The translations under genes were made by a program, and so were the position numbers. Under the pieces are notes generated by a model. It did not search any database, was not told the origin of the DNA, and saw only the letters and a list, made by a program, of their open reading frames with translations. Below are positions 1-32,000 of a DNA stretch of 32,000 nucleotides, piece after piece. Position 1 is the first letter of the stretch. Each line of letters opens with the position of its first letter. Origin of the DNA: Sinorhizobium meliloti (GTDB taxonomy: Bacteria; Pseudomonadota; Alphaproteobacteria; Rhizobiales; Rhizobiaceae); the NCBI RefSeq assembly GCF_017876815.1, contig NZ_JAGIOS010000004.1:197538-229537 (forward strand), written 5' to 3'.

Positions 1-1237
1 CCCGGCTCGATGCGGAAGCCGCGGATCTTCACCTGGTCGTCATTGCGGCCCAGAAACTCGAGATTGCCGTCCGGCAGGTAGCGCGCCAGGTCGCCGCTCC
101 GGTACATCCGGGCGCCGGCCTTGCCGCTGAACGGATCCGCCAGGAACCGCTCCGCCGTCAGATCCGGACGGTTCAGGTAGCCGCGCGCCACCCCCGCCCC
201 GCCGATATAAAGCTCACCAACCGCCCCAAACGGAACCGGCTGACCATGGCCGTCAAGCACATAAAGCCGCGTGTTCGCAATCGGACGGCCGATATGTGGC
301 ACAGCGTCACTGAAGAGCTGTCCCGACGTTGCCACCACAGTAACTTCCGTAGGACCATAGTTGTTTATTAACTTGAGAGGCGACGGTAGCCGGGAAGGCA
401 CACGCTGCAGACGATCACCGCCAATAAGCAAGTACTCCAACAAGGGAGTTACCAGCTCGCCTTCCAATGCCGTTGCAGCCAGCGGCGTGACTAAAAAGGC
501 GGCGTCCAGTGGTTGATCACGCCACCATTGCAGGAGAAGCAGAGGATCTCCTGCTGCCGGTCTGGGTGGGAGCAGCAATGTGCTGCGATTGTATAATGCA
601 GACCATAACTCCCAAGCGCTGGCATCGAATGCCACTCCAGCCGTGAGTGTGCAGCAGGTTTCTGGTTGCGGACAAAATGTTTGCACATGCCATGCTGTGA
701 GATTGACCAGGCTTTGATGCTCGACCATGACGCCCTTAGGCGTGCCGGTGGATCCCGATGTGTAGATGACATAGGCGAGATTGCGGGCTGTCAGGCCGAG
801 GGCATGCGGGTCGGGATCGTCAGCGGACTGGTCGGCCCAGGCGGGCATGGCCGTATCGAGATCGACCGCGCTCAGATCGGCGATTGCCTCGGCGCCCAAC
901 GCCGCGCGACCGGCGGCGTCGCAAAGCAGCAGCCGCGGGCCGGCATCGTCGAGCAACTGCCGCAGCCGTTCGCCGGGATAGGCCGGGTCGAGCGGCACAT
1001 AGGCGCCGCCGGCCTTGAGGATCGCCAGCAGTCCCACCACCATCGCCGGGCTGCGCTCGACGCAGATCGCCACTGGCTGGTCCGGCCTCACCCCGAGCCC
1101 GATCAGATGATGGGCCAGCCGGTTGGCATCGGCATTGAGCGCGCCATAGGAGATCGACTGCTCTTCGAAGACCAGTGCGACCGCGTCGGGCACCCGGCGC
1201 ACCTGCGCCTCGAACAGCGCATGCACGCAAAGATCCG
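1..1237 (-). other. Adenylation domain, module 10 (C-terminal part cut by window edge); specificity core 294..716; code DAWLLGNVVK = Leu-like
   Basis: Duplicate of module 4 at offset 19523. Shadow ORFs 173..358, 491..772 and 666..1646 are identical to 19696..19881, 20014..20295 and 20189..21169. Confidence 0.65.
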
Positions 1238-4200
1238 ACGGATAGTCCGCTTCCGTCCGGTTCAACTCCTCCAGCAGGTAGCTGCGCTCCTCAGCCGGAA
1301 GAATGTCGAGCTCGCGCACCGGCCTATCGGGCGCTCGCTCCAGCGCGTCGACCAGTTGCTCGAGCGCCCGCTGCATATAGCCGCAGATCCGATCGGCGGA
1401 GATCGGTTCGACCGCATCCGCCGTGAGCCCCAGCTCCTGACCAAAATCATCCACCGACAATGTCAGCGGGTAGTTGGTCCGTTCCTCGCCCCCCAGCCAT
1501 TCCATGCCGGACAGCACGTCGCTTGTTCCCTCGCCGGCCATGGCCGGCGTGTTGTGGCGATAGTTCAGCAGCGCACTGAACAGTGGCGCTGGTGCGGCAA
1601 TATCGCTGCAGCGTTGCGCCAATGCCAGCGAGGCATGCTCGTGTGAGAGCAATTCGGCCAGACGGGCGTGGGCGATACGCACACTTTCCTCGACCCCGGT
1701 CTCATCCAGATCCAGCCGCAACGGCAAGGTATTCATGAACAAGCCCATGGCACGGTCGGCGCCGGCACCCGCATGCATGCGGCCGAACAGCACCGTGCCG
1801 AACACCACCTGCTCGCGCCCGCTGCTCAGCGCCACCACCTGGGCCCAGGCCAGATGGCAAAGGCTAGCCAGACTCACCCCCAGCCGCCGCGCCTGGTGGC
1901 GCAGCCGATCGTTGAGCGCCTGCGGCAGCATCCGCCGTGCCTCGCGGGATCCGCGGCCGTCGCCGTAGACCTCGCTCAGAGCGAACGGCAGGGTCGGCTC
2001 GTCGATGTCGGCCAGCATCTCCCGGAAGAACGCTTCATGCGCTTTGGCATCCATGCCAAGCCGCGCCTGCGCCACCAGGTTGCGGAACGGCTGCGGCGCT
2101 GCAAGCTCATGCGCGCGCCCCTGCAGCACGGCCCGGACCTCGGCATGCATCACTTCGGCCGTCGTATGATCGCCGATCAGATGGTGCTGCAACACCAAAA
2201 GCAGCCAGCGCCCACTGCCCGGTTCGCGCGCGATCACGAACCGCATCAGCGGCGCCCGGCCAAGGTCGAGACGGTACTGGCGCGGATCGAACCGCCGCCT
2301 GAGCTCATCGGCGCCGGAACCATCACAGCCCTCCAGCTCGACCTCGAGCACATCCAAGGCCGCCTTGCGCCAGACAACCTGCGCCGGGCTCGACAGACCC
2401 TCCCAGACAAAGGCCGTGCGCAGAATGTCGTGGCGGTCGACCACCTGTTGAACCGCAGCAAGGTAGCGATCGAGCACACCCCGCTCGGCAAAGGCCATCT
2501 GCGACATCAGGAGATAGGGGTCACCCTGGGTTGCCAGCAAATGATGGAACAGAATGCCGTCCTGCAGCGGCGACAGGCCATAGATATCCTGGATATTGCC
2601 GACGCCGCCGGGCACCGTCGACACGATCCGGTCGATCTCCGGTTGGGTAAGATCGATCAGCGGCAGCATCTGCGGCGTGATCGCCGTACTCTGTTCCGTG
2701 ATCGGGTTGGCAGGCACCGCCACCTCCCGGTGGCTGCCAAGACTGGCGGCCAGATCGGCAAGCATCGGCTTTGCAAATACGGTGCGAACCTCGACCCCGA
2801 GCGACAGCCGCCGCAGACGCTCCATCATTTGAACGGCCAACAATGAGTGGCCGCCGAGTTCGAAGAAGTTGTCGTGGCGCCCGACCTGCTCGACGCCGAG
2901 AAGCTCGGCCCAGATCCCGGCCAGCAGCGTCTCGATCTCGCCCTGCGGCGCCTCGTAGGCCCGACGCGCATAGGCATCGTCGTCGGGGACCGGCAGCGCC
3001 TTGCGATCGAGCTTGCCGTTCACCGTCAGCGGCAGTGCATCCAGCCGCACGAAGGCCGACGGCACCATGTAGTCCGGTAGCAGGCCACCCAGATGCGCCC
3101 GCAACGACGCAGCAAGCCCGGCGCCATCGGCTTCGGCCGACCCGTCCGTCGTCTTCGCAACCACATAGGCGACGAGCCGCTTGTCGCCCGCCGCATCCGC
3201 GTGCGCCACCACCGCGGCATCGCCGACAAGCTCATGCTCCAGCAGCCGGGCGGCGATCTCGCCCGGCTCGATGCGGAAGCCGCGGATCTTCACCTGGTCG
3301 TCATTGCGGCCCAGAAACTCGAGATTGCCGTCCGGCAGGTAGCGCGCCAGGTCGCCGCTCCGGTACATCCGGGCGCCGGCCTTGCCGCTGAACCGATCCG
3401 CCAGGAACCGCTCCGCCGTCAGATCCGGACGGTTCAGGTAGCCGCGCGCCACCCCCGCCCCGCCGATATAAAGCTCACCAACCGCCCCAAACGGAACCGG
3501 CTGACCATGGCCGTCAAGCACATAAAGCCGCGTGTTCGCAATCGGACGGCCGATCGGCACATTCGTCGATGCGGAAAGATCTGCAGGGATGTCATGGAAA
3601 GCACAACCGACAACCGCTTCCGTCGGGCCATACTCGTTGACCATTCTAGCCGCCGGCTGGATCTGACGCCATAGCTCGACCGTCGAAGACGACAATGCCT
3701 CACCGCCAATGACGAGCACCTCCACCTGACTGGCATCTCCAGCCGACTGCAGTTGCTGTCCAAGAACATCCAGATGGCTCGGGGTGACATTGACCAGCCC
3801 GCACGGTGTGCCGACCCTTGACCTGATCCCCTCGACCTCGTCCCCCTCTTTCGTAAGCAATGCATGGCCGCCAGAGACCAAAGGCGCAAACAGGCTGTTG
3901 ACCGTGGCATCGAAGGCGAGCGAAGAGGAGACGACGGATGAGGATATGGGAGCGTAGCTCTCACGAGCCCAGCTTAGATAATTGGTCATCCCGCGATGCT
4001 CGACCATGACGCCCTTAGGCGTGCCGGTGGATCCCGATGTGTAGATGACATAGGCGAGATTGCGGGCTGTCAGGCCGAGGGCATGCGGGTCGGGATCGTC
4101 AGCGGACTGGTCGGCCCAGGCGGGCATGGCCGTATCGAGATCGACCGCGCTCAGATCGGCGATTGCCTCGGCGCCCAACGCCGCGCGACCGGCGGCGTCG

Positions 4201-7200
4201 CAAAGCAGCAGCCGCGGGCCGGCATCGTCGAGCAACTGCCGCAGCCGTTCGCCGGGATAGGCCGGGTCGAGCGGCACATAGGCGCCGCCGGCCTTGAGGA
4301 TCGCCAGCAGTCCCACCACCATCGCCGGGCTGCGCTCGACGCAGATCGCCACTGGCTGGTCCGGCCTCACCCCGAGCCCGATCAGATGATGGGCCAGCCG
4401 GTTGGCATCGGCATTGAGCGCGCCATAGGAGATCGACTGCTCTTCGAAGACCAGTGCGACCGCGTCGGGCACCCGGCGCACCTGCGCCTCGAACAGCGCA
4501 TGCACGCAAAGATCCGACGGATAGTCCGCTTCCGTCCGGTTCAACTCCTCCAGCAGGTAGCTGCGCTCGTCGGGAGGCAGGATGTCCAGCTCGGACACCG
4601 GCTGCTCGGCATCGGCAAGCATCGCCCGCAGCAGCGCCAGCAGATAACCACATTGCCGCTCGATCGTCGCCCGGTCGAACAACGCCGTCGCATAACCGAG
4701 AGTCCCGGCGATGGCCTCGCCCTGCTCTCCCAGGTTCAGTTCCAGATCGAACTTGACCTGATCGAGCCCCTCGCCCGCAGCCTCCACCTGCAGCCCCGGC
4801 AGGTCCAATGACCCGCCGGTGTTGTTCTGCCAGGCCAGTCCCACCTGGAACAACGGCGTGTGACCGAGAGCCCGGGGCGGCTGGACGATCTCCACCACCT
4901 GCTCGAACGGCAGGTCCTGATGATCCTGCGCAGTCAAGGCCGCGCGCCGCGCCCGTTCCAGGAGATCGGACACGCTCGGCTCGCCCGACAGATCGATTCG
5001 AACCGCCAGGGTGTTGACGAAGAAACCGATTAGATCCTCGATCTCGCGGCGACGACGATTGGCCGTCGGCACACCGATCACGATATCGTCCTGCCCGGAC
5101 AGGCGCGACAGCACCGCAGCCCAGGCCGCCAGCACTGTCATGAACAACGTCGTGCCATGCTGCCGGCTCAGCCGCTTGAGCCCGCGCGTCAGAGCCTCAT
5201 CGATGATAACCGGCACGCTGGCTCCGGCAAACGACTGCTGTGCCGGCCGCGGCCGGTCCGTCGGCAGCGCCAGACGGGCCGGGGCGCCAGACAGGGTGTC
5301 GCGCCAATACTGCGCCTGACGCTGCAGCCGCTCGCCGGACAACCATTGCCGTTGCCAGGCGGCATAATCCGGATACTGGATCGCCAGCGGCGGCAAAGGA
5401 TCGTCCTCTCCAGCCTCAAACGCGCGGTAAAGGCTGCTGAGCTCGCGCACCAGCACCCCCATCGACCAGCCGTCCGAGACTATGTGATGCTGCGTCAGCA
5501 GAAAGACGTGCTCCTCATCCGCCAGCCGGATCAGCCGGCCGCGGATCAGCGGCTCGCGCGCCAGATCGAACGGCGTGCGCGCCTCTTCTTGGCACAGATC
5601 CAAAAGCGCGGCTTGCGCATCCGGCCTGTCCCGCAGATCGTGCTCGACCACCGGCAATCCCCTGTCCCCGGACAAAATCTGGACCTGCGGGTCATCCTCT
5701 CCGGCGACGAACGTGCAGCGCAGCGCCTCGTGACGGGCAAACAGGCGGTCAAGGCTGCGCCGCCAGGCGACACGGTCGAGTCTGCCCTGCAGTCGCCACC
5801 CCAGGGGAATGTTATAGTTCGTGCTGTCTTCGTCCAACTGTGCCAAGAACCAGAGACGCTGCTGCGAATAGGACAGCGGAAGCGCACCATCACGTCCGAC
5901 TGGCATGATGACCGGTGCTGTCTGCGCACCAGAACCGTTCAGCACTTCGCCAACACTTAGCGCCAAATCGGCCAATGTTGGCTTGGCGAACAGGATCGCC
6001 AGCGGCAGCTCCACTGCCAAGGCCTCGGTCAGCCGGACGAGCACGCGCACCGCCAACAATGAGTGGCCGCCGAGCTCGAAGAAGTTGTCGTGGCGCCCGA
6101 CCTGCTCGACGCCGAGAAGCTCGGCCCAGATCCCGGCCAGCAGCGTCTCGATCTCGCCCTGCGGCGCCTCGTAGGCCCGACGCGCATAGGCATCGTCGTC
6201 GGGGACCGGCAGCGCCTTGCGGTCGAGCTTGCCGTTCACCGTCAGCGGCAGTGCATCCAGCCGCACGAAGGCCGACGGCACCATGTAGTCCGGTAGCAGG
6301 CCACCCAGATGCGCCCGCAACGACGCAGCAAGCCCGGCGCCATCGGCTTCGGCCGACCCGTCCGTCGTCTTCGCAACCACATAGGCGACGAGCCGCTTGT
6401 CGCCCGCCGCATCCGCGTGCGCCACCACCGCGGCATCGCCGACAAGCTCATGCTCCAGCAGCCGGGCGGCGATCTCGCCCGGCTCGATGCGGAAGCCGCG
6501 GATCTTCACCTGGTCGTCATTGCGGCCCAGAAACTCGAGATTGCCGTCCGGCAGGTAGCGCGCCAGGTCGCCGCTCCGGTACATCCGGGCGCCGGCCTTG
6601 CCGCTGAACGGATCCGCCAGGAACCGCTCCGCCGTCAGATCCGGACGGTTCAGGTAGCCGCGCGCCACCCCCGCCCCGCCGATATAAAGCTCACCAACCG
6701 CCCCAAACGGAACCGGCTGACCATGGCCGTCAAGCACATAAAGCCGCGTGTTCGCAATCGGACGGCCGATCGGCACATTCGTCGATGCGGAAAGATCTGC
6801 AGGGATGTCATGGAAAGCACAACCGACAACCGCTTCCGTCGGGCCATACTCGTTGACCATTCTAGCCGCCGGCTGGATCTGACGCCATAGCTCGACCGTC
6901 GAAGACGACAATGCCTCACCGCCAATGACGAGCACCTCCACCTGACTGGCATCTCCAGCCGACTGCAGTTGCTGTCCAAGAACATCCAGATGGCTCGGGG
7001 TGATTTTGACCAGGCTGCGGCCTAAGCCAAGCTCTACCTTAAGGTTTTCGGTTTCATTTCGGTTGGATATGAGATGTTCCTGCGCACCACAGATTAGAGG
7101 CGCGAACAGGCTGGTAATCGTGGCATCGAAGGCGAGCGAAGAGGAGACGACGGATGAGGATATGGGAGCGTAGCTCTCACGAGCCCAGCTTAGATAATTG

Positions 7201-10200
7201 GTCATCCCGCGATGCTCGACCATGACGCCCTTAGGCGTGCCGGTGGATCCCGATGTGTAGATGACATAGGCGAGATTGCGGGCTGTCAGGCCGAGGGCAT
7301 GCGGGTCGGGATCGTCAGCGGACTGGTCGGCCCAGGCGGGCATGGCTGCATCGAGATCGACCGCGCTCAGATCGTCGATTGCCTCGGCGCCCAACGCCGC
7401 GCGGCCGGCGGCGTCGCAAAGCAGCAGCCGCGGGCCGGCATCGTCGAGCAACTGCCGCAGCCGTTCGCCGGGATAGGCCGGGTCGAGCGGCACATAGGCG
7501 CCGCCGGCCTTGAGGATCGCCAGCAGTCCCACCACCATCGCCGGGCTGCGCTCGACGCAGATCGCCACTGGCTGGTCCGGCCTCACCCCGAGCCCGATCA
7601 GATGATGGGCCAGCCGGTTGGCATCGGCATTGAGCGCGCCATAGGAGATCGACTGCTCTTCGAAGACCAGTGCGACCGCGTCGGGCACCCGGCGCACCTG
7701 CGCCTCGAACAGCGCATGCACGCAAAGATCCGACGGATAGTCCGCTTCCGTCCGGTTCAACTCCTCCAGCAGGTAGCTGCGCTCGTCGGGAGGCAGGATG
7801 TCCAGCTCGGACACCGGCTGCTCGGCATCGGCAAGCATCGCCCGCAGCAGCGCCAGCAGATAACCACATTGCCGCTCGATCGTCGCCCGGTCGAACAACG
7901 CCGTCGCATAACCGAGAGTCCCGGCGATGGCCTCGCCCTGCTCTCCCAGGTTCAGTTCCAGATCGAACTTGACCTGATCGAGCCCCTCGCCCGCAGCCTC
8001 CACCTGCAGCCCCGGCAGGTCCAATGACCCGCCGGTGTTGTTCTGCCAGGCCAGTCCCACCTGGAACAACGGCGTGTGACCGAGAGCCCGGGGCGGCTGG
8101 ACGATCTCCACCACCTGCTCGAACGGCAGGTCCTGATGATCCTGCGCAGTCAAGGCCGCGCGCCGCGCCCGTTCCAGGAGATCGGACACGCTCGGCTCGC
8201 CCGACAGATCGATTCGAACCGCCAGGGTGTTGACGAAGAAACCGATTAGATCCTCGATCTCGCGGCGACGACGATTGGCCGTCGGCACACCGATCACGAT
8301 ATCGTCCTGCCCGGACAGGCGCGACAGCACCGCAGCCCAGGCCGCCAGCACTGTCATGAACAACGTCGTGCCATGCTGCCGGCTCAGCCGCTTGAGCCCG
8401 CGCGTCAGAGCCTCATCGATGATAACCGGCACGCTGGCTCCGGCAAACGACTGCTGTGCCGGCCGCGGCCGGTCCGTCGGCAGCGCCAGACGGGCCGGGG
8501 CGCCAGACAGGGTGTCGCGCCAATACTGCGCCTGACGCTGCAGCCGCTCGCCGGACAACCATTGCCGTTGCCAGGCGGCATAATCCGGATACTGGATCGC
8601 CAGCGGCGGCAAAGGATCGTCCTCTCCAGCCTCAAACGCGCGGTAAAGGCTGCTGAGCTCGCGCACCAGCACCCCCATCGACCAGCCGTCCGAGACTATG
8701 TGATGCTGCGTCAGCAGAAAGACGTGCTCCTCATCCGCCAGCCGGATCAGCCGGCCGCGGATCAGCGGCTCGCGCGCCAGATCGAACGGCGTGCGCGCCT
8801 CTTCTTGGCACAGATCCAAAAGCGCGGCTTGCGCATCCGGCCTGTCCCGCAGATCGTGCTCGACCACCGGCAATCCCCTGTCCCCGGACAAAATCTGGAC
8901 CTGCGGGTCATCCTCTCCGGCGACGAACGTGCAGCGCAGCGCCTCGTGACGGGCAAACAGGCGGTCAAGGCTGCGCCGCCAGGCGACACGGTCGAGTCTG
9001 CCCTGCAGTCGCCACCCCAGGGGAATGTTATAGTTCGTGCTGTCTTCGTCCAACTGTGCCAAGAACCAGAGACGCTGCTGCGAATAGGACAGCGGAAGCG
9101 CACCATCACGTCCGACTGGCATGATGACCGGTGCTGTCTGCGCACCAGAACCGTTCAGCACTTCGCCAACACTTAGCGCCAAATCGGCCAATGTTGGCTT
9201 GGCGAACAGGATCGCCAGCGGCAGCTCCACTGCCAAGGCCTCGGTCAGCCGGACGAGCACGCGCACCGCCAACAATGAGTGGCCGCCGAGCTCGAAGAAG
9301 TTGTCGTGGCGCCCGACCTGCTCGACGCCGAGAAGCTCGGCCCAGATCCCGGCCAGCAGCGTCTCGATCTCGCCCTGCGGCGCCTCGTAGGCCCGACGCG
9401 CATAGGCATCGTCGTCGGGGACCGGCAGCGCCTTGCGATCGAGCTTGCCGTTCACCGTCAGCGGCAGTGCATCCAGCCGCACGAAGGCCGACGGCACCAT
9501 GTAGTCCGGTAGCAGGCCACCCAGATGCGCCCGCAACGACGCAGCAAGCCCGGCGCCATCGGCTTCGGCCGACCCGTCCGTCGTCTTCGCAACCACATAG
9601 GCGACGAGCCGCTTGTCGCCCGCCGCATCCGCGTGCGCCACCACCGCGGCATCGCCGACAAGCTCATGCTCCAGCAGCCGGGCGGCGATCTCGCCCGGCT
9701 CGATGCGGAAGCCGCGGATCTTCACCTGGTCGTCATTGCGGCCCAGAAACTCGAGATTGCCGTCCGGCAGGTAGCGCGCCAGGTCGCCGCTCCGGTACAT
9801 CCGGGCGCCGGCCTTGCCGCTGAACGGATCCGCCAGGAACCGCTCCGCCGTCAGATCCGGACGGTTCAGGTAGCCGCGCGCCACCCCCGCCCCGCCGATA
9901 TAAAGCTCACCAACCGCCCCAAACGGAACCGGCTGACCATGGCCGTCCAGCAGATAGATCCGCGTGTTCGAGATCGGACGCCCGATCGTTTCGACAACAG
10001 CCTGTCCCCTCGGCATGCAAATCCAAGTCGAGTACGTCGTTGTCTCCGAAGGGGCGTACAGATTGCAAATCTTCTGGACGCGCGTGCTCTCGAATATCCT
10101 CTCGATTAGGTCTGCCTTCACCCGCTCGCCCGCCAAATTGATGACGCTTGCCGATGCCGGCACGGCTTTCTGGTTGACCAGAGCGGTGATCGCCGAGGGG

Positions 10201-24600: not shown

Positions 24601-27600
24601 TCACGATATCGTCCTGCCCGGACAGGCGCGACAGCACCGCAGCCCAGGCCGCCAGCACTGTCATGAACAACGTCGTGCCATGCTGCCGGCTCAGCCGCTT
24701 GAGCCCGCGCGTCAGAGCCTCATCGATGATAACCGGCACGCTGGCTCCGGCAAACGACTGCTGTGCCGGCCGCGGCCGGTCCGTCGGCAGCGCCAGACGG
24801 GCCGGGGCGCCAGACAGGGTGTCGCGCCAATACTGCGCCTGACGCTGCAGCCGCTCGCCGGACAACCATTGCCGTTGCCAGGCGGCATAATCCGGATACT
24901 GGATCGCCAGCGGCGGCAAAGGATCGTCCTCTCCAGCCTCAAACGCGCGGTAAAGGCTGCTGAGCTCGCGCACCAGCACCCCCATCGACCAGCCGTCCGA
25001 GACTATGTGATGCTGCGTCAGCAGAAAGACGTGCTCCTCATCCGCCAGCCGGATCAGCCGGCCGCGGATCAGCGGCTCGCGCGCCAGATCGAACGGCGTG
25101 CGCGCCTCTTCTTGGCACAGATCCAAAAGCGCGGCTTGCGCATCCGGCCTGTCCCGCAGATCGTGCTCGACCACCGGCAATCCCCTGTCCCCGGACAAAA
25201 TCTGGACCTGCGGGTCATCCTCTCCGGCGACGAACGTGCAGCGCAGCGCCTCGTGACGGGCAAACAGGCGGTCAAGGCTGCGCCGCCAGGCGACACGGTC
25301 GAGTCTGCCCTGCAGTCGCCACCCCAGGGGAATGTTATAGTTCGTGCTGTCTTCGTCCAACTGTGCCAAGAACCAGAGACGCTGCTGCGAATAGGACAGC
25401 GGAAGCGCACCATCACGTCCGACTGGCATGATGACCGGTGCTGTCTGCGCACCAGAACCGTTCAGCACTTCGCCAACACTTAGCGCCAAATCGGCCAATG
25501 TTGGCTTGGCGAACAGGATCGCCAGCGGCAGCTCCACTGCCAAGGCCTCGGTCAGCCGGACGAGCACGCGCACCGCCAACAATGAGTGGCCGCCGAGCTC
25601 GAAGAAGTTGTCGTGGCGCCCGACCTGCTCGACGCCGAGAAGCTCGGCCCAGATCCCGGCCAGCAGCGTCTCGATCTCGCCCTGCGGCGCCTCGTAGGCC
25701 CGACGCGCATAGGCATCGTCGTCGGGGACCGGCAGCGCCTTGCGGTCGAGCTTGCCGTTCACCGTCAGCGGCAGTGCATCCAGCCGCACGAAGGCCGACG
25801 GCACCATGTAGTCCGGTAGCAGGCCACCCAGATGCGCCCGCAACGACGCAGCAAGCCCGGCGCCATCGGCTTCGGCCGACCCGTCCGTCGTCTTCGCAAC
25901 CACATAGGCGACGAGCCGCTTGTCGCCCGCCGCATCCGCGTGCGCCACCACCGCGGCATCGCCGACAAGCTCATGCTCCAGCAGCCGGGCGGCGATCTCG
26001 CCCGGCTCGATGCGGAAGCCGCGGATCTTCACCTGGTCGTCATTGCGGCCCAGAAACTCGAGATTGCCGTCCGGCAGGTAGCGCGCCAGGTCGCCGCTCC
26101 GGTACATCCGGGCGCCGGCCTTGCCGCTGAACGGATCCGCCAGGAACCGCTCCGCCGTCAGATCCGGACGGTTCAGGTAGCCGCGCGCCACCCCCGCCCC
26201 GCCGATATAAAGCTCACCAACCGCCCCAAACGGAACCGGCTGACCATGGCCGTCCAGCAGATAGATCCGCGTGTTCGAGATCGGACGCCCGATCGTTTCG
26301 ACAACAGCCTGTCCCCTCGGCATGCAAATCCAAGTCGAGTACGTCGTTGTCTCCGAAGGGGCGTACAGATTGCAAATCTTCTGGACGCGCGTGCTCTCGA
26401 ATATCCTCTCGATTAGGTCTGCCTTCACCCGCTCGCCCGCCAAATTGATGACGCTTGCCGATGCCGGCACGGCTTTCTGGTTGACCAGAGCGGTGATCGC
26501 CGAGGGGACCGTGTTGATCAAGGAGGCATCCACGGGCGTTCGGGCCAGCTTCAGTGCATCCTCGACGAGGTACAGCTTGCTTCCCTGCGAAAGCGGAAGG
26601 AAACACTCGTAAACGGACAGATCAAAACAGACCGAGGTCGAGAACAGCGTGCGCCTGATCTCTGATTCGGCAAACACGCCGCCACTCCAATGCAGCAGGT
26701 TCACTGTGTTCCGATGCTCGACCATGACGCCCTTAGGCGTGCCGGTGGATCCCGATGTGTAGATGACATAGGCGAGATTGCGGGCTGTCAGGCCGAGGGC
26801 ATGCGGGTCGGGATCGTCAGCGGACTGGTCGGCCCAGGCGGGCATGGCCGTATCGAGATCGACCGCGCTCAGATCGGCGATTGCCTCGGCGCCCAACGCC
26901 GCGCGACCGGCGGCGTCGCAAAGCAGCAGCCGCGGGCCGGCATCGTCGAGCAACTGCCGCAGCCGTTCGCCGGGATAGGCCGGGTCGAGCGGCACATAGG
27001 CGCCGCCGGCCTTGAGGATCGCCAGCAGTCCCACCACCATCGCCGGGCTGCGCTCGACGCAGATCGCCACTGGCTGGTCCGGCCTCACCCCGAGCCCGAT
27101 CAGATGATGGGCCAGCCGGTTGGCATCGGCATTGAGCGCGCCATAGGAGATCGACTGCTCTTCGAAGACCAGTGCGACCGCGTCGGGCACCCGGCGCACC
27201 TGCGCCTCGAACAGCGCATGCACGCAAAGATCCGACGGATAGTCCGCTTCCGTCCGGTTCAACTCCTCCAGCAGGTAGCTGCGCTCGTCGGGAGGCAGGA
27301 TGTCCAGCTCGGACACCGGCTGCTCGGCATCGGCAAGCATCGCCCGCAGCAGCGCCAGCAGATAACCACATTGCCGCTCGATCGTCGCCCGGTCGAACAA
27401 CGCCGTCGCATAACCGAGAGTCCCGGCGATGGCCTCGCCCTGCTCTCCCAGGTTCAGTTCCAGATCGAACTTGACCTGATCGAGCCCCTCGCCCGCAGCC
27501 TCCACCTGCAGCCCCGGCAGGTCCAATGACCCGCCGGTGTTGTTCTGCCAGGCCAGTCCCACCTGGAACAACGGCGTGTGACCGAGAGCCCGGGGCGGCT

Positions 27601-30600
27601 GGACGATCTCCACCACCTGCTCGAACGGCAGGTCCTGATGATCCTGCGCAGTCAAGGCCGCGCGCCGCGCCCGTTCCAGGAGATCGGACACGCTCGGCTC
27701 GCCCGACAGATCGATTCGAACCGCCAGGGTGTTGACGAAGAAACCGATTAGATCCTCGATCTCGCGGCGACGACGATTGGCCGTCGGCACACCGATCACG
27801 ATATCGTCCTGCCCGGACAGGCGCGACAGCACCGCAGCCCAGGCCGCCAGCACTGTCATGAACAACGTCGTGCCATGCTGCCGGCTCAGCCGCTTGAGCC
27901 CGCGCGTCAGAGCCTCATCGATGATAACCGGCACGCTGGCTCCGGCAAACGACTGCTGTGCCGGCCGCGGCCGGTCCGTCGGCAGCGCCAGACGGGCCGG
28001 GGCGCCAGACAGGGTGTCGCGCCAATACTGCGCCTGACGCTGCAGCCGCTCGCCGGACAACCATTGCCGTTGCCAGGCGGCATAATCCGGATACTGGATC
28101 GCCAGCGGCGGCAAAGGATCGTCCTCTCCAGCCTCAAACGCGCGGTAAAGGCTGCTGAGCTCGCGCACCAGCACCCCCATCGACCAGCCGTCCGAGACTA
28201 TGTGATGCTGCGTCAGCAGAAAGACGTGCTCCTCATCCGCCAGCCGGATCAGCCGGCCGCGGATCAGCGGCTCGCGCGCCAGATCGAACGGCGTGCGCGC
28301 CTCTTCTTGGCACAGATCCAAAAGCGCGGCTTGCGCATCCGGCCTGTCCCGCAGATCGTGCTCGACCACCGGCAATCCCCTGTCCCCGGACAAAATCTGG
28401 ACCTGCGGGTCATCCTCTCCGGCGACGAACGTGCAGCGCAGCGCCTCGTGACGGGCAAACAGGCGGTCAAGGCTGCGCCGCCAGGCGACACGGTCGAGTC
28501 TGCCCTGCAGTCGCCACCCCAGGGGAATGTTATAGTTCGTGCTGTCTTCGTCCAACTGTGCCAAGAACCAGAGACGCTGCTGCGAATAGGACAGCGGAAG
28601 CGCACCATCACGTCCGACTGGCATGATGACCGGTGCTGTCTGCGCACCAGAACCGTTCAGCACTTCGCCAACACTTAGCGCCAAATCGGCCAATGTTGGC
28701 TTGGCGAACAGGATCGCCAGCGGCAGCTCCACTGCCAAGGCCTCGGTCAGCCGGACGAGCACGCGCACCGCCAACAATGAGTGGCCGCCGAGCTCGAAGA
28801 AGTTGTCGTGGCGCCCGACCTGCTCGACGCCGAGAAGCTCGGCCCAGATCCCGGCCAGCAGCGTCTCGATCTCGCCCTGCGGCGCCTCGTAGGCCCGACG
28901 CGCATAGGCATCGTCGTCGGGGACCGGCAGCGCCTTGCGGTCGAGCTTGCCGTTCACCGTCAGCGGCAGTGCATCCAGCCGCACGAAGGCCGACGGCACC
29001 ATGTAGTCCGGTAGCAGGCCACCCAGATGCGCCCGCAACGACGCAGCAAGCCCGGCGCCATCGGCTTCGGCCGACCCGTCCGTCGTCTTCGCAACCACAT
29101 AGGCGACGAGCCGCTTGTCGCCCGCCGCATCCGCGTGCGCCACCACCGCGGCATCGCCGACAAGCTCATGCTCCAGCAGCCGGGCGGCGATCTCGCCCGG
29201 CTCGATGCGGAAGCCGCGGATCTTCACCTGGTCGTCATTGCGGCCCAGAAACTCGAGATTGCCGTCCGGCAGGTAGCGCGCCAGGTCGCCGCTCCGGTAC
29301 ATCCGGGCGCCGGCCTTGCCGCTGAACGGATCCGCCAGGAACCGCTCCGCCGTCAGATCCGGACGGTTCAGGTAGCCGCGCGCCACCCCCGCCCCGCCGA
29401 TATAAAGCTCACCAACCGCCCCAAACGGAACCGGCTGACCATGGCCGTCAAGCACATAAAGCCGCGTGTTCGCAATCGGACGGCCGATCGGCACATACCG
29501 GTGAGGCGCCTCAATTCTCGTGTCGGTAAGAAAGGTGGTCGCCCAAATCGTAGTCTCCGTCGGACCATAAAGATTTCTGAGAGATTTTACCCTTCTGCCG
29601 AGGTTCGAGGCCAGTTCTGAAGGCAACGCTTCGCCGCCACACAACGCACTTAAATCGGGCGCACCCTCCCAGCCGGCGTCGAAGAGCATACGCCACGCCG
29701 CGGGGGTCGCCTGCATCACAGTTATCTTCTGATGGGATAGATACCGCTGTAATCCAATAACACTGGTTCCGTGAGCAACAACGACGTTAGCTCCCACGGC
29801 CAGTGGCAGATAGAGTTCCAGCCCCGCAATGTCGAAAGAGATCGTCGTGATCGCGAGGAGTGAATCGCGCTCTGTGAGGCCCGATACATCTAAAAGAGCG
29901 CGTAGAACATTGAGAACACTTGCATGCTCGACCATGACGCCCTTAGGCGTGCCGGTGGATCCCGATGTGTAGATGACATAGGCGAGATTGCGGGCTGTCA
30001 GGCCGAGGGCATGCGGGTCGGGATCGTCAGCGGACTGGTCGGCCCAAGCGGGCATGGCCGCATCGAGATCGACCGCGCTCAGATCGGCGATTGCCTCGGC
30101 GCCCAACGCCGCGCGACCGGCGGCGTCGCAAAGCAGCAGCCGCGGGCCGGCATCGTCGAGCAACTGCCGCAGCCGTTCGCCGGGATAGGCCGGGTCGAGC
30201 GGCACATAGGCGCCGCCGGCCTTGAGGATCGCCAGCAGTCCCACCACCATCGCCGGGCTGCGCTCGACGCAGATCGCCACTGGCTGGTCCGGCCTCACCC
30301 CGAGCCCGATCAGATGATGGGCCAGCCGGTTGGCATCGGCATTGAGCGCGCCATAGGAGATCGACTGCTCTTCGAAGACCAGTGCGACCGCGTCGGGCAC
30401 CCGGCGCACCTGCGCCTCGAACAGCGCATGCACGCAAAGATCCGACGGATAGTCCGCTTCCGTCCGGTTCAACTCCTCCAGCAGGTAGCTGCGCTCCTCA
30501 GCCGGAAGAATGTCGAGCTCGCGCACCGGCCTATCGGGCGCTTGCTCCAGCGCGTCGACCAGTTGCTCGAGCGCCCGCTGCATATAGCCGCAGATCCGAT

Positions 30601-31066
30601 CGGCGGAGATCGGTTCGACCGCATCCGCCGTGAGCCCCAGCTCCTGACCAAAATCATCCACCGACAATGTCAGCGGGTAGTTGGTCCGTTCCTCGCCCCC
30701 CAGCCATTCCATGCCGGACAGCACGTCGCTTGTTCCCTCGCCGGCCATGGCCGGCGTGTTGTGGCGATAGTTCAGCAGCGCACTGAACAGTGGCGCTGGT
30801 GCGGCAATATCGCTGCAGCGTTGCGCCAATGCCAGCGAGGCATGCTCGTGTGAGAGCAATTCGGCCAGACGGGCGTGGGCGATACGCACACTTTCCTCGA
30901 CCCCGGTCTCATCCAGATCCAGCCGCAACGGCAAGGTATTCATGAACAAGCCCATGGCACGGTCGGCGCCGGCACCCCATGCATGCGGCCGAACAGCACC
31001 GTGCCGAACACCACCTGCTCGCGCCCGCTGCTCAGCGCCACCACCTGGGCCCAGGCCAGATGGCAA
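15665..31066 (-). CDS. Non-ribosomal peptide synthetase, gene 1, main open frame (5133 aa): [C/E C-terminal part]-A(Gly)-T-C-A(Cys)-T-C-A(orphan code)-T-C/E-A(Leu-like)-T-C/E-A(Cys)-T-docking tail
   Basis: ORF-track translation carries repeated NRPS core motifs: [21 protein letters not shown] (A3), [15 protein letters not shown] (A6), [37 protein letters not shown] (A7/A8), [10 protein letters not shown] (A10), [11 protein letters not shown] (T), and HHIVSDGWS or HHLIGDH (C). The Met at 31066 and about 30 following residues are out-of-frame read-through, not a real start. NRPS homology in this frame begins at about 30977. Confidence 0.9.
15668..15757 (-). other. C-terminal 30-aa tail of gene 1 after the T domain: putative donor docking element
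   Basis: [30 protein letters not shown]. Too short for a TE or R domain, and it replaces the normal in-cis T-C linker. Confidence 0.5.
15675..15679 (-). promoter_or_regulatory. Shine-Dalgarno AGGAG for gene 2, 6 nt upstream of ATG 15668, inside the end of gene 1
   Basis: The minus strand reads TAGGAGTCTGAAATGA. The ATG and the gene 1 TGA overlap (ATGA), implying translational coupling. Confidence 0.7.
15758..15964 (-). other. Thiolation domain, module 5, type 1 (last domain of gene 1)
   Basis: [48 protein letters not shown]. Ser codon 15848..15850. Confidence 0.85.
15997..17499 (-). other. Adenylation domain, module 5; specificity core 16520..16978; code DLYNNALTYK = Cys-type
   Basis: Same core translation as module 2 ([21 protein letters not shown]...[22 protein letters not shown]). 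Confidence 0.72.
17575..18939 (-). other. Condensation domain, dual C/E-like type, module 5
   Basis: Same translation as the module 4 copy. HHLLATQGD at 18782..18808; HH of HHLIGDH at 18443..18448. Confidence 0.7.
19003..19222 (-). other. Thiolation domain, module 4, type 2
   Basis: [37 protein letters not shown]. Ser codon 19106..19108. Confidence 0.85.
19255..20760 (-). other. Adenylation domain, module 4; specificity core 19817..20239; code DAWLLGNVVK = Leu-like
   Basis: Core motifs are [30 protein letters not shown] and [14 protein letters not shown]. The code is one position (278, L for F) from the Leu code DAWFLGNVVK. Confidence 0.65.
20836..22200 (-). other. Condensation domain, dual C/E-like type, module 4
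   Basis: N-terminal [10 protein letters not shown] at 22043..22069, [10 protein letters not shown] (HH at 21704..21709), [12 protein letters not shown] (C5-like). Confidence 0.7.
22264..22483 (-). other. Thiolation domain, module 3, type 2 (precedes a C/E-like domain)
   Basis: ...[41 protein letters not shown]. Ser codon 22367..22369. Confidence 0.85.
22516..24039 (-). other. Adenylation domain, module 3; specificity core 23078..23518; code DANNVGEVGK (no assignment; Asn-like scaffold)
   Basis: Core motifs are [30 protein letters not shown] and [14 protein letters not shown]. The code differs from the Asn code DATKVGEVGK only at positions 239 and 278. Confidence 0.7.
24115..25415 (-). other. 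Condensation domain, LCL-like, module 3
   Basis: Same translation as the module 2 C domain. HH of HHIVSDGWS is at 25007..25012. Confidence 0.8.
25480..25699 (-). other. Thiolation domain, module 2, type 1
   Basis: Same sequence as the module 1 T domain. Ser codon 25583..25585. Confidence 0.85.
25732..27234 (-). other. Adenylation domain, module 2; specificity core 26255..26713; code DLYNNALTYK = Cys-type
   Basis: Core motifs are [29 protein letters not shown] and [14 protein letters not shown]. The same core translation occurs in modules 5 and 7. Confidence 0.72.
27310..28610 (-). other. Condensation domain, LCL-like, module 2
   Basis: Motifs: [13 protein letters not shown] (C1), RHEALRCTF (C2), [10 protein letters not shown] (C3; HH at 28202..28207), YPDYAAWQ (C4), [11 protein letters not shown] (C5), HQDLPFEQV (C6). 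Confidence 0.8.
28675..28894 (-). other. Thiolation (PCP) domain, module 1, type 1 (precedes an LCL domain)
   Basis: [65 protein letters not shown]. The Ser codon is at 28778..28780. Confidence 0.85.
28927..30444 (-). other. Adenylation domain, module 1; specificity core 29489..29923; code DILQLGLIWK = Gly
   Basis: Core motifs are [28 protein letters not shown] and [14 protein letters not shown]. Hand alignment to GrsA-PheA positions 235/236/239/278/299/301/322/330/331, with K517 in the constant block, gives the textbook Gly code. Domain edges are approximate. Confidence 0.8.
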
Positions 31067-31880
31067 AGGCTAGCCAGACTCACCCCCAGCCGCCGCGCCT
31101 GGTGGCGCAGCCGATCGTTGAGCGCCTGCGGCAGCATCCGCCGTGCCTCGCGGGATCCGCGGCCGTCGCCGTAGACCTCGCTCAGAGCGAACGGCAGGGT
31201 CGGCTCGTCGATGTCGGCCAGCATCTCCCGGAAGAACGCTTCATGCGCTTTGGCATCCATGCCAAGCCGCGCCTGCGCCACCAGGTTGCGGAACGGCGGC
31301 GCTGCAAGCTCATGCGCGCGCCCCTGCAGCACGGCCCGGACCTCGGCATGCATCACTTCGGCCGTCGTATGATCGCCGATCAGATGGTGCTGCAACACCA
31401 AAAGCAGCCAGCGCCCACTGCCCGGTTCGCGCGCGATCACGAACCGCATCAGCGGCGCCCGGCCAAGGTCGAGACGGTACTGGCGCGGATCGAACCGCCG
31501 CCTGAGCTCATCGGCGCCGGAACCATCACAGCCCTCCAGCTCGACCTCGAGCACATCCAAGGCCGCCTTGCGCCAGACAACCTGCGCCGGGCTCGACAGA
31601 CCCTCCCAGACAAAGGCCGTGCGCAGAATGTCGTGGCGGTCGACCACCTGTTGAACCGCAGCAAGGTAGCGATCGAGCACACCCCGCTCGGCAAAGGCCA
31701 TCTGCGACATCAGGAGATAGGGGTCACCCTGGGTTGCCAGCAAATGATGGAACAGAATGCCGTCCTGCAGCGGCGACAGGCCATAGATATCCTGGATATT
31801 GCCGACGCCGCCGGGCACCGTCGACACGATCCGGTCGATCTCCGGTTGGGTAAGATCGATCAGCGGCAGCATCTGCGGCG
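30520..31880 (-). other. Condensation domain, dual C/E-like type, upstream of module 1; disrupted by a 1-nt deletion and carrying a 3-nt in-frame deletion
   Basis: Motifs: [27 protein letters not shown] (HHLLATQGD at 31723..31749), [19 protein letters not shown] (HH at 31384..31389). Edges are approximate. Confidence 0.7.
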
Positions 31881-32000
31881 TGATCGCCGTACTCTGTTCC
31901 GTGATCGGGTTGGCAGGCACCGCCACCTCCCGGTGGCTGCCAAGACTGGCGGCCAGATCGGCAAGCATCGGCTTTGCAAATACGGTGCGAACCTCGACCC
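30940..32000 (-). CDS. NRPS fragment (end of a T domain plus the N-terminal ~2/3 of a C/E-type condensation domain); 5' end beyond the window; the upstream part of gene 1 in a different frame
   Basis: The frame is open to the window edge ([10 protein letters not shown] precedes the Met at 31968). The translation equals the other C/E copies up to ...[12 protein letters not shown], then reads [12 protein letters not shown]-stop, because one base is missing relative to the three other copies. Confidence 0.8.
30975..30980 (-). other. Frameshift site: 1-nt deletion relative to the three other C/E copies
   Basis: The + strand reads ggcaccccatgcatgcgg here and ggcacccgcatgcatgcgg at 1766, 18028 and 21289. 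The coding strand changes from catgcgggtg to catggggtg. Confidence 0.9.

Follow-up and report, generated by a model that had tools for sequence, protein, structure and literature searches.

The window, a stretch of 32,000 nucleotides analysed in full, carries on its minus strand ten C-A-T NRPS modules made of four types of DNA block, and the near-identity of their scaffold is very probably maintained by gene conversion between modules, while the specificity cores persist and are re-dealt by tracts bounded in the linkers. The locus belongs to an NRPS that is carried on conjugative accessory plasmids in Sinorhizobium meliloti and S. medicae, and the window is the middle portion of a two-gene NRPS of about 16 modules in all. 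In a megablast search of PLSDB, the closest plasmid was pMl1 of S. meliloti ml46 (99.8%) and about 30 Sinorhizobium or Rhizobium plasmids matched at 95% or more.

To obtain block lengths and variable columns, anchor-to-anchor units were aligned with MAFFT. The ten anchors (717, 3996, 7212, 10407, 13644, 16979, 20240, 23519, 26714 and 29924) all fall, on the minus strand, on the third base of the codon for the His of GVMVEH. The alignment bore out the original prediction that near-identical scaffold blocks alternate with differing cores in all ten modules; its four block types stood, whereas its lengths of 574, 423-501 and ~680-720 bp gave way to 573, 465-507 and 674 nt for block i, the core and block iii, respectively. 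At the DNA level, linker copies match one another at 99.3-100%. Block i, from the CA motif in the C-A linker to A3, is present ten times; 6 of its columns are variable, and each copy is 0-4 sites away from the commonest version. Block iii, from the extended A6 into the T domain, is present in 9 full copies with 5 variable columns, and a tenth is reduced by the window edge at position 1 to a 248-nt stub. The T-half+C cassette exists in two types, 99.3-100% identical within type. Among the 6 copies of type 1 (LCL-type, 1483 nt), five are 100% identical and the sixth, 99.3% identical to the others, has an extra 140 nt of C- and N-terminal tails holding the gene boundary; the 4 copies of type 2 (dual E/C-type, 1546 nt) are 99.9-100% identical (Table 1).

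Table 1. Modules, blocks and other features of the window, listed along the minus strand after the two genes
Feature	Position	Strand	Remark
NRPS gene 1, 3' part, modules M1-M5	15665..32000	-	
NRPS gene 2, 5' part, modules M6-M10	1..15668	-	continues past window edge at position 1
Type 2 T-half+C cassette (dual E/C-type) before M1	30497..32000	-	cut by window edge
M1 block i (CA motif to A3)	29924..30496	-	
M1 core, Gly (DILQLGLIWK)	29444..29923	-	480 nt
M1 block iii (extended A6 to T1 motif)	28770..29443	-	
Type 1 T-half+C cassette (LCL-type), M1/M2	27287..28769	-	1483 nt
M2 block i	26714..27286	-	
M2 core B (DLYNNALTYK)	26249..26713	-	465 nt
M2 block iii	25575..26248	-	
Type 1 cassette, M2/M3	24092..25574	-	
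M3 block i	23519..24091	-	
M3 core Cn (DANNVGEVGK)	23033..23518	-	486 nt; nested variable stretch 23311-23425
M3 block iii	22359..23032	-	
Type 2 cassette (dual E/C-type), M3/M4	20813..22358	-	1546 nt
M4 block i	20240..20812	-	
M4 core, Leu-like (DAWLLGNVVK)	19772..20239	-	468 nt
M4 block iii	19098..19771	-	
Type 2 cassette, M4/M5	17552..19097	-	
M5 block i	16979..17551	-	
M5 core B	16514..16978	-	465 nt; identical to M2 and M7 cores
M5 block iii	15840..16513	-	
Type 1 cassette spanning gene 1/gene 2 boundary	14217..15839	-	1623 nt
M6 block i	13644..14216	-	
M6 core, Thr (DFWNIGMVHK)	13137..13643	-	507 nt
M6 block iii	12463..13136	-	
Type 1 cassette, M6/M7	10980..12462	-	
M7 block i	10407..10979	-	
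M7 core B	9942..10406	-	465 nt
M7 block iii	9268..9941	-	
Type 1 cassette, M7/M8	7785..9267	-	
M8 block i	7212..7784	-	
M8 core, Asn (DATKVGEVGK)	6726..7211	-	486 nt; equals Cn outside nested stretch
Nested 115-nt mini-cassette in M8 core	7004..7118	-	
M8 block iii	6052..6725	-	
Type 1 cassette, M8/M9	4569..6051	-	
M9 block i	3996..4568	-	
M9 core Cn	3510..3995	-	486 nt; identical to M3 core
M9 block iii	2836..3509	-	
Type 2 cassette, M9/M10	1290..2835	-	
M10 block i	717..1289	-	
M10 core, Leu-like	249..716	-	468 nt; identical to M4 core
M10 block iii	1..248	-	cut by window edge
Duplicated segment of gene 1, 6772 nt	19524..26295	-	99.9% to window 1-6772 (gene 2)

The A cores occur in six versions in the window. 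The Gly, Asn and Thr cores are present once, core B, for which the Cys of the original prediction is a tentative call, three times, and Cn and the Leu-like core twice each, copies of one version being 100% identical; cores of different type are only ~50% identical to each other. As had been proposed, nine of the ten specificity-code positions lie inside the core and K517 (in NGKLDRK) inside block iii. Boundaries were expected to be uniform: the 5' boundary does fall at the same codon in every module, but the 3' boundary is staggered over ~55 nt, a 15-aa stretch there being common to Gly, Cn, Asn and Leu and missing from B and Thr. Asn and DANNVGEVGK, taken at first for separate cassettes, are in fact one, since all 54 of their 54 differences fall in the nested 115-nt stretch (53% identity within, 100% outside), which carries code positions 239 and 278.

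We propose that each module would comprise four recombination units, namely two linkers (one from the CA motif as far as A3, the other from the extended A6 as far as the serine motif of the T domain) and two functional units, a 'specificity' core (A3 to A6) and a 'chirality' unit (the second T half and the whole C domain, of LCL or dual E/C type). Homologous recombination among modules, in the form of gene conversion, would homogenise the linkers and same-type units within a plasmid, resulting in concerted evolution. Homology would be interrupted by the ~50%-identical unlike cores and by the two C types, which would thereby survive as sharply bounded islands whose edges lie at conserved motifs. 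The identity of the linkers would allow conversion or unequal-exchange tracts with both ends in linkers to carry whole cores or multi-module stretches elsewhere, and the resulting re-dealing of the amino acid at each position would lead closely related strains to encode different peptides. Sequence divergence alone could be enough to block conversion in the cores; as parts of this explanation we infer the role of selection in keeping them, the recombination enzymology, the product, and what each of the two C types would mean for D or L configuration.

Comparison with orthologous clusters in relatives revealed homogeneity within each lineage and fixed differences between lineages, and supports homogenisation of the scaffold by gene conversion: all paralogous copies of block i, block iii and the C cassettes share lineage-specific substitutions. 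In the draft relative L001, 7 of 7 block i copies and 5 of 5 ungapped block iii copies share substitutions that none of the 9-10 copies in the window has, with 3 sites fixed in block i and 7 in block iii. Among 10 sequences, including the WSM419 reference plasmid pSMED03, block iii copies differ on average at 0.4-2.7 positions per 674 nt within a strain and at 5-11.7 between the four lineages; for the type 1 and type 2 cassettes alike, the figures are 0-3 differences within a strain and 7-17 between lineages. Orthologous cores differ by ~1% between lineages, as does the scaffold. Minor scaffold haplotypes have a patchy distribution over modules and strains, the pattern that short conversion tracts would produce.

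The 100% identity of same-type units and the large segments duplicated at 99.9% would also be expected if the array had been born recently, by serial amplification of one module into which foreign cassettes were then pasted, with no ongoing homogenisation, and the GC content of the cores (0.49-0.59), far below that of the scaffold (0.66-0.69), is such as imported DNA might have. We consider this unlikely. In Rhizobium sp. 007 the module order is nearly the same (B Gly Gly B Q B B / Thr B Asn Cn ? Gly, resembling that of S. medicae ml29) with scaffold paralogs only 80-100% identical (mean 88%), so the array is older than its homogeneity. Four plasmid lineages each have their own substitutions fixed in all copies, and recent birth would need an independent re-amplification in every lineage with the order retained; lineage-wise grouping of scaffold copies and a conserved module order are already largely seen. 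Scaffold paralogs are 82-98% and cores 50-57% identical in S. terangae, S. kostiense and Bradyrhizobium. Core types and the GC contrast also recur in Bradyrhizobium and in further species of Sinorhizobium. Core divergence keeps step with scaffold divergence, identity being 80% between core B and its counterpart in Bradyrhizobium and 88% between core Q and that of S. kostiense, with matching scaffold divergence, and the core types are as old as the scaffold.

Pasting of cores is supported by the comparison with ml46. The two sequences are colinear at 99.85-99.9% apart from one region, where the window has Cn-C2-Leu and ml46 has Q-C2-Gly. This region lies in the duplicated segment of gene 1, which aligns to its donor-like counterpart in gene 2 of the window with 7 mismatches and no gaps and contains block iii, C1, block i, the Cn core, block iii, C2, block i, the Leu core and the start of block iii. 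Our reading is that a long tract of conversion or duplication, which would have moved two cores, left this footprint. Combined, these results support the view that pasting and homogenisation, the two alternatives of the original prediction, are facets of one process. Module order differs in 8 of 8 complete Sinorhizobium plasmids examined, and the string of the window is unlike any of them. Some comparison assemblies are imperfect, with a collapsed core in L001 and fragmented CDSs in ml56, ml20 and WSM1115, and some of the variety that module orders seem to show may be an artefact of this.

The arrangement B-Cn-Leu-B had no match in any PLSDB record, and a misjoin between identical repeats is therefore possible in the assembly of the window. 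That the uniformity itself was produced by assembly or polishing, truly similar modules having been evened out by consensus building and perhaps mis-ordered, is very improbable. Assembling exact repeats of 0.6-1.5 kb, present up to ten times, is indeed difficult, multi-mapping short reads used in polishing long-read assemblies could inflate identity within a genome, L001 contains a chimeric core (core 5: 79% identity, 28 gaps), and the window has a unique gene 1 arrangement and one frameshift. Yet nine plasmids from four countries, pSMED03 among them, were assembled independently and contain the same blocks, with identity within a plasmid of at least 99.6%; copy-specific minor variants are preserved and are shared by the window and ml46 at corresponding modules; and the frame is intact across 32 kb except for one base. 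That purifying selection alone holds the scaffold constant, without recombination, is extremely improbable, although the scaffold blocks do hold catalytic motifs (A1-A3, A6-A10) and the Ppant site. The copies agree at the nucleotide level, synonymous sites included, with 0-4 differences per 573-674 nt, whereas identity to orthologs in other species is 77-89%. Lineage-specific substitutions occur in all copies at once, and synonymous divergence between paralogs was found not to equal that between orthologs.

Both the block structure and the idea of swaps are already published (PMC8097286, PMC11428043), and the locus is a striking, extreme example of a recently described mode of NRPS evolution that brings no new principle. 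The ~20 NRPS pathways of the kahalalide symbiont Candidatus Endobryopsis kahalalidifaciens have a 'unit-and-linker' organisation (Li, Ioca, He and Donia, PNAS Nexus 2024, PMC11428043) with the same four boundaries as here (CA motif, A3, extended A6 and T1) and a matching set of four pieces (CA-A3 linker, Acore specificity unit, A6-T1 linker, and chirality unit comprising T1 motif-C-CA motif). The 14-aa CA motif found here resembles ELLETFNxTE(VA)YP of the kahalalide system, both lying 28 aa ahead of A1, and in both systems the linkers are the recombination sites and the specificity and chirality units are largely uncoupled. Exchange in that obligate symbiont takes place among ~20 pathways; here the partners are modules within a single assembly line, which a culturable, free-living bacterium carries on a conjugative plasmid. 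The linkers, 'highly conserved' there, are here near-identical at the DNA level, the D-type unit is apparently a dual E/C domain instead of E plus DCL, and variation is seen here, unlike in the kahalalide case, between conspecific strains.

Natural Acore subdomain swaps are known from NRPS families, cyanobacterial ones among them (Baunach et al. 2021, PMC8097286), and there too the only piece exchanged is the segment of the A domain that bears specificity. Each of those swaps is a single event deduced from orthologous clusters, and their breakpoints vary, whereas here a single 5' breakpoint and the ~55 nt 3' zone are common to seven core types in every module of one synthetase. The likeness to engineered subdomain swaps (Crüsemann 2013 and Kries 2015, as cited in PMC8097286) that had been drawn for this locus is apt, except that the natural unit, from A3 to the extended A6 (155-169 aa), is larger; as in the cyanobacterial cases, it is longer than the engineered flavodoxin-like subdomain.

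Concerted evolution of PKS and NRPS modules has been described by Medema et al. (2014, PMC4256081), who name two extremes, the NRPS for syringopeptin and the PKS for mycolactone. As here, internal recombination homogenises domains within a cluster, and functionally diverged parts escape the homogenisation cycle in that model. The mycolactone PKS is, like the present locus, an extreme, repetitive and plasmid-borne mega-synthase, carried on pMUM001. The earlier model dealt with whole domains and trees; here the escape units are the A sub-domain and the T-half+C unit, their edges are base-pair-sharp, and differences fixed between plasmid lineages show the process at work.

Three coding sequences had been counted in the window. 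There are two genes, the third apparent one arising because a 1-nt deletion at ~30977 breaks gene 1, whose frame is shifted upstream of that point; if real, this deletion would inactivate the gene. The type 2 cassette before M1 that contains it also has a 3-nt deletion at ~31297 relative to the other copies. The open frame of gene 1 runs from 31066 down to a stop at 15665-15667 (minus strand, 5133 aa), and the ATG of gene 2 (15668-15666, minus strand) overlaps the gene 1 TGA as ATGA, a 4-nt overlap also present in the ml46 annotation.

All long open reading frames in the window lie on the minus strand (see table), and they belong to two genes, gene 1 carrying modules M1 to M5 and gene 2 modules M6 to M10, numbered along transcription. 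The original prediction counted three coding sequences; comparison with further copies of the same condensation domain showed that these are parts of two genes. A single nucleotide is deleted at ~30977 (minus strand; ATGCGGG to ATGGGG), inside a C domain of the putative dual E/C type, and breaks gene 1; when the missing base is put back one continuous frame is obtained, so the third ORF piece is part of gene 1. Neither this deletion nor a 3-nt deletion located 320 nt upstream (~31297) is present in the window's three further copies of this domain or in the nine copies carried by the closest plasmid, pMl1 of strain ml46. The single-base deletion is either a sequencing error or a genuine inactivating mutation. 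The stop of gene 1 and the start of gene 2 overlap as ATGA (15665-15668), which suggests translational coupling of the two genes. Pfam searches detected solely Condensation, AMP-binding, AMP-binding_C and PP-binding domains in repeating order (E-values of 1e-27 to 1e-232 for gene 1), which amounts to ten C-A-T modules of ~1065-1111 aa with a period of 3195-3335 nt. By their domain order, their A motifs and their readable code, they are elongation modules of a type I NRPS.

Open reading frames, specificity codes and nested mini-cassettes of the window, and gene content of the closest plasmid
Feature	Position	Strand	Length	Content or assignment
Gene 1 frame	31066 to stop at 15665	minus	5133 aa	
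Gene 2 frame	ATG 15668-15666, off window edge at position 1	minus		
Third ORF piece	31998-30943	minus		stops mid condensation domain
Nested mini-cassette, M8	7004-7118	minus	115 nt	
Nested mini-cassette, M3	23311-23425	minus	115 nt	
Nested mini-cassette, M9	3788-3902	minus	115 nt	
Code of M1				DILQLGLIWK, Gly
Code of M2, M5, M7				DLYNNALTYK, labelled B, no substrate assigned
Code of M3, M9				DANNVGEVGK, labelled Cn, no substrate assigned
Code of M4, M10				DAWLLGNVVK, Leu-like
Code of M6				DFWNIGMVHK, Thr
Code of M8				DATKVGEVGK, Asn
ml46 pMl1 (CP140885.1), gene 1			10 modules	Formyl_trans_N (formyltransferase-like) domain, then C domain, then first A domain
ml46 pMl1, gene 2			6 modules	T-TE at end
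ml46 pMl1, downstream of gene 2				conserved 511-aa protein without Pfam match, ParB-N protein, 219-aa hypothetical protein without Pfam match, nitroreductase/SagB-like protein, PPTase

The sequence was cut at the ten A3 anchors of the original prediction, all of which were exact, and the anchor-to-anchor units were aligned; from global alignment with free end gaps, whose values are meaningless for divergent block pairs, only high-identity pairs were used. The alignment confirmed that the modules are built of only four block types, with near-identical scaffolds and two T-half+C cassettes. Block i, from the C-A linker to GVMVEH, is 573 nt long and has six variable columns among its ten copies, and block iii, running from HGQPVPF via A6-A10 to a motif of 10 residues, is 674 nt long and has five variable columns among nine full copies and a 248-nt stub. 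The type 1 T-half+C cassette (C1, 1483 nt) is present six times; five copies are identical and the sixth, 99.3% identical and otherwise standard, contains 140 extra bases that hold the boundary between the two genes, which sits in the T-C linker. The four copies of the type 2 cassette (C2, 1546 nt) are 99.9-100% identical. The cores, that is the A3-to-A6 specificity units, are 465-507 nt long and share ~50% identity between types. Their boundaries had been expected at the same codon in every module: this holds for the 5' edge, where all types diverge 0-2 nt past the His codon of GVMVEH, but not for the 3' edge, which is staggered over ~55 nt, identity resuming 0-53 nt before a motif of 17 residues. 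C1 and C2 differ up to ...ELDILP(P/A)(D/E)E and are identical from a motif of 16 residues onwards. A CA-like motif is present, with 28 aa between its YP and ISYGAL, the A1 motif. Block iii ends in a motif of 12 residues, after which RVLVRLTE... is always found before C1 and QMMERLRR... always before C2.

The specificity codes were read by alignment to a GrsA-PheA segment. The Gly, Thr and Asn codes obtained are the exact textbook Stachelhaus codes, so the code register is valid. Lys517 is located in block iii, in the constant part of the module as anticipated. A literature search returned nothing for the codes DLYNNALTYK, DANNVGEVGK or DAWLLGNVVK; it gave no backing for the Cys that the original prediction had read from DLYNNALTYK, and cores B, Cn and Q (the last from other plasmids) are given no substrate. 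Six separate core versions had been distinguished; Asn and Cn are one and the same cassette of 486 nt apart from a nested stretch of 115 nt, which contains all of their 54 differences (53% identity inside, 100% outside). This mini-cassette alters code positions 239 and 278, giving DATKVGEVGK or DANNVGEVGK, and represents a mosaicism finer than the A3-A6 unit.

The C1 cassette carries a motif of 11 residues together with HHIVSDGWS, as in ordinary LCL domains. Numbered within the cassette, C2 has a stretch of 19 residues, containing an extra N-terminal HHLLATQGD, at residue 103 and, where the His motif usually lies, QHHLIGD at residue 223. Dual E/C domains reportedly have such an extra N-terminal HH[I/L]xxxxGD beside the C3 His motif and no upstream E domain. 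No separate E domain was detected with Pfam in the window, where every module is a plain C-A-T, and by these motifs C2 is a putative dual epimerisation/condensation domain. Searches of PDB sequences with C1 and C2 did not separate the LCL, DCL and dual E/C subtypes. As each T-domain second half agrees with the type of the C domain that follows it, the cassette can be read as a 'chirality unit', with a D or L outcome predicted from the C motifs. In the published unit-and-linker organisation a specificity unit and the chirality unit after it are largely uncoupled. In a small sample across strains, B, Gly, Cn and Thr cores were each seen before both C1 and C2, whereas Leu and Q (a further core type) always precede C2 and Asn always precedes C1.

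A protein search pointed to the Rhizobiaceae. A scan of GTDB representative genomes with block i gave 85% identity at best among the matches listed (S. terangae), and megablast against PLSDB gave 99.8% for pMl1 of S. meliloti ml46 and at least 95% for ~30 plasmids, including pSMED03 of S. medicae WSM419. These plasmid matches identify the locus as the NRPS carried by conjugative accessory plasmids in Sinorhizobium meliloti and S. medicae. A literature search found no account of a Sinorhizobium NRPS cluster or of its product. The start of gene 1 in ml46, with a formyltransferase-like and a C domain, is unusual.

Near-identity of the scaffolds may be accounted for by selection alone, by recent duplication of modules or by continued homogenisation through gene conversion, the last having been one of two alternatives in the original prediction. 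With selection only or with recent duplication, copies at the same position on different plasmids would be the closest relatives; the opposite was observed, which argues for homogenisation. In L001, a draft relative (GCA_054089665.1) diverged by ~1%, all seven copies of block i and all five ungapped copies of block iii carry substitutions absent from every copy in the window, and these fixed differences amount to 3 sites in block i and 7 in block iii. Among ten sequences of four lineages ({window, ml46, ml56}, {1132, L001}, {AK21} and {S. medicae}), copies of block iii from one strain differ at 0.4-2.7 sites and those from different lineages at 5-11.7 sites, and C1 and C2 follow the same pattern. 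Ungapped full-length matches were required in two of the tables, from which the S. medicae copies of block i and the cores of other lineages are therefore absent; for those lineages the conclusions are based on block iii, C1 and C2. The reference plasmid of WSM419 shows the same pattern, which thus does not stem from the peculiarities of a single assembly method. The array is also older than its homogeneity: with a slash at the gene boundary, the cluster of Rhizobium sp. 007 reads B Gly Gly B Q B B / Thr B Asn Cn ? Gly and the same order is found in S. medicae ml29, where the module marked by a question mark is Leu, but the scaffold paralogs of Rhizobium sp. 007 are 80-100% identical (mean 88%). 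Combined, these results show concerted evolution by gene conversion: paralogs resemble each other more than orthologs do, in an array that predates their homogeneity, and the lineage-specific differences fixed in all copies support the gene-conversion alternative of the original prediction.

Cores and scaffolds also differ in base composition. In the window, GC is 0.49-0.59 in cores, 0.68-0.69 in blocks i and iii and 0.657 in C cassettes, with GC3 values of 0.50-0.75, 0.82-0.85 and 0.785, respectively. A recent foreign origin of the low-GC cores was considered and rejected, as the core types and the contrast are also found in Bradyrhizobium and other Sinorhizobium, with core divergence matching scaffold divergence. 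The contrast was seen for overall GC in the relatives from S. terangae, S. kostiense and Bradyrhizobium, whose scaffolds are far less homogenised; scaffolds there are 82-98% alike and cores 50-57%. As core types are common to several genera and have diverged to the same extent as the scaffold, they represent an old toolkit rather than recent imports. The contrast may possibly be caused by GC-biased gene conversion or by a separate history of the cores. Assembly-line genes are said to contain repeats of intense nucleotide skew (GRINS); judged qualitatively at the level of blocks, such skews were not seen in the scaffold blocks (GC skew of +0.005 to +0.12, AT skew of -0.07 to -0.12).

Cassettes have probably moved as well. 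Window and ml46 align colinearly, at 99.85-99.9% identity, except for one stretch of gene 1, which reads Cn-C2-Leu in the window and Q-C2-Gly in ml46; other strains have Q-C2 followed by Gly or B at this place. The gene 1 Cn-C2-Leu segment with its flanks (6772 nt) differs by 7 mismatches from the Cn-C2-Leu segment of gene 2 in the window itself. A long non-reciprocal conversion tract, bounded by the identical linkers and leaving the donor in place, would generate such a near-copy. Provided that the assembly is correct, this is a non-reciprocal transfer in which the donor was kept, and this one core-carrying tract bears out the 'pasting' of cassettes, the second alternative of the original prediction. 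Minor scaffold haplotypes are distributed patchily across modules and strains.

The order of modules varies between strains. All eight complete Sinorhizobium plasmids have different module strings, mainly in gene 1, and the string of the window (Gly-B-Cn-Leu-B/Thr-B-Asn-Cn-Leu) is unlike all eight, part of these differences, including that of the window, being possibly assembly-made, as CDSs are fragmented in several of the assemblies compared and a core is collapsed in one draft. The gene 1 arrangement of the window is absent from all PLSDB records. L001 was first taken as a further case of different module order and was then dropped, since its core 5 (JBSZLK010000006.1, 15263-15774) resembles two types at once. 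Aligned to Cn, this core has 79% identity and 28 gaps, and it is simultaneously 77% identical to B; it has a stop codon inside and looks like a consensus of collapsed modules; the module order of L001 was accordingly left out of the comparison. In plasmid pWSM1115_3 of S. medicae WSM1115, where many CDSs are fragmented, a multi-module repeat spans the gene boundary (Q B B / Thr B Asn Q B B / Thr B), and arose either by true tandem duplication or through misassembly. The locus, with L001 as an instance, is a warning that short-read or unpolished assemblies collapse or mis-order genes of this kind.

Concerted evolution of PKS and NRPS domains has been described, and the NRPS of syringopeptin and the PKS of mycolactone were named as extreme examples (Medema et al. 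2014, PMC4256081), and natural swaps of the Acore only, with retention of the C-A linker and the Asub-T interface, are widespread (Baunach et al. 2021, PMC8097286). The closest match is provided by the kahalalide NRPSs of Ca. Endobryopsis kahalalidifaciens, in which a 'unit-and-linker' organisation is delimited by the CA, A3, extended A6 and T1 motifs into a specificity unit, a chirality unit and two linkers; its authors left open whether this organisation is unique to their symbiont (PMC11428043, 2024). The four block edges of the window coincide with these four motifs. The CA motif, ELLETFNxTE(VA)YP in kahalalide NRPSs, corresponds to a motif of 14 residues in the window, situated 28 residues before A1 as in the kahalalide definition (~28 aa). 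The two systems share the specificity unit from the end of A3 to the extended A6, and in both the T1 motif splits the T domain, its second half being tied to the downstream C type. They differ in the D-subtype chirality unit, which contains a separate E domain in kahalalide NRPSs and none in the window, where C2 with the extra HHLLATQGD is found instead. Unlike in the kahalalide system, recombination takes place among modules of a single plasmid-borne assembly line, the linker DNA is near 100% identical, and variation is seen between conspecific, culturable strains. These results indicate that the unit-and-linker organisation is not unique to the kahalalide symbiont; the locus is an unusually clean further case of a known organisation and establishes no new principle.

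For NRPS engineering, the central practical issue is which parts of the enzyme tolerate exchange. The natural answer has so far been read from single events here and there, or from a single algal symbiont that cannot be cultured. The plasmid locus gives the same answer from an unrelated lineage, with base-pair-sharp edges and linkers that are near 100% identical: A3-to-A6 cores and T-half+C units are swapped, and the CA-A3 and A6-T1 linkers are retained. Its value is that NRPS exchange units can be studied in a natural experiment that is tractable. The host is a genetically tractable model bacterium, and whole units seem to distinguish its natural variants, of which dozens have been sequenced. 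How fast and by what mechanism the units recombine, how well swaps are tolerated functionally, and whether C domains indeed exert no gatekeeping against new substrates thereby become directly testable. We regard as doubtful, taken as a whole, the reading in which the plasmid NRPS is a natural combinatorial peptide generator, re-dealt fast through its identical linkers and hypervariable by diversifying selection rather than by neutral instability. If it were true, gene conversion and unequal exchange would re-deal specificity and chirality units, each conspecific strain would make a different peptide of 14-16 residues, and diversifying selection would act via competition or host interaction; the excess of 10-20 points in scaffold GC over the cores might then be a footprint of long-term GC-biased gene conversion.

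Stretches 97-98% identical to the window are also found on Rhizobium plasmids. The cluster of Rhizobium sp. 007 (NZ_CP064189.1) is a mosaic with respect to Sinorhizobium, with 96% identity for the Thr core, 98% for one C1, 93% for the Asn and Cn cores and 79-86% for most blocks, a pattern that suggests recombination between plasmid lineages of different genera. Plasmid pTA1_4 of Rhizobium ruizarguesonis TA1 (NZ_CP088108.1) carries, at ~457-461 kb, an NRPS stretch 96-98% identical to the window and arranged C1 B C2 Gly C2 Cn, which has no gene in the PLSDB table and whose three copies of block i are mutually 100% identical; it probably goes back to a transfer of the same cluster into Rhizobium and survives as a pseudogene remnant.
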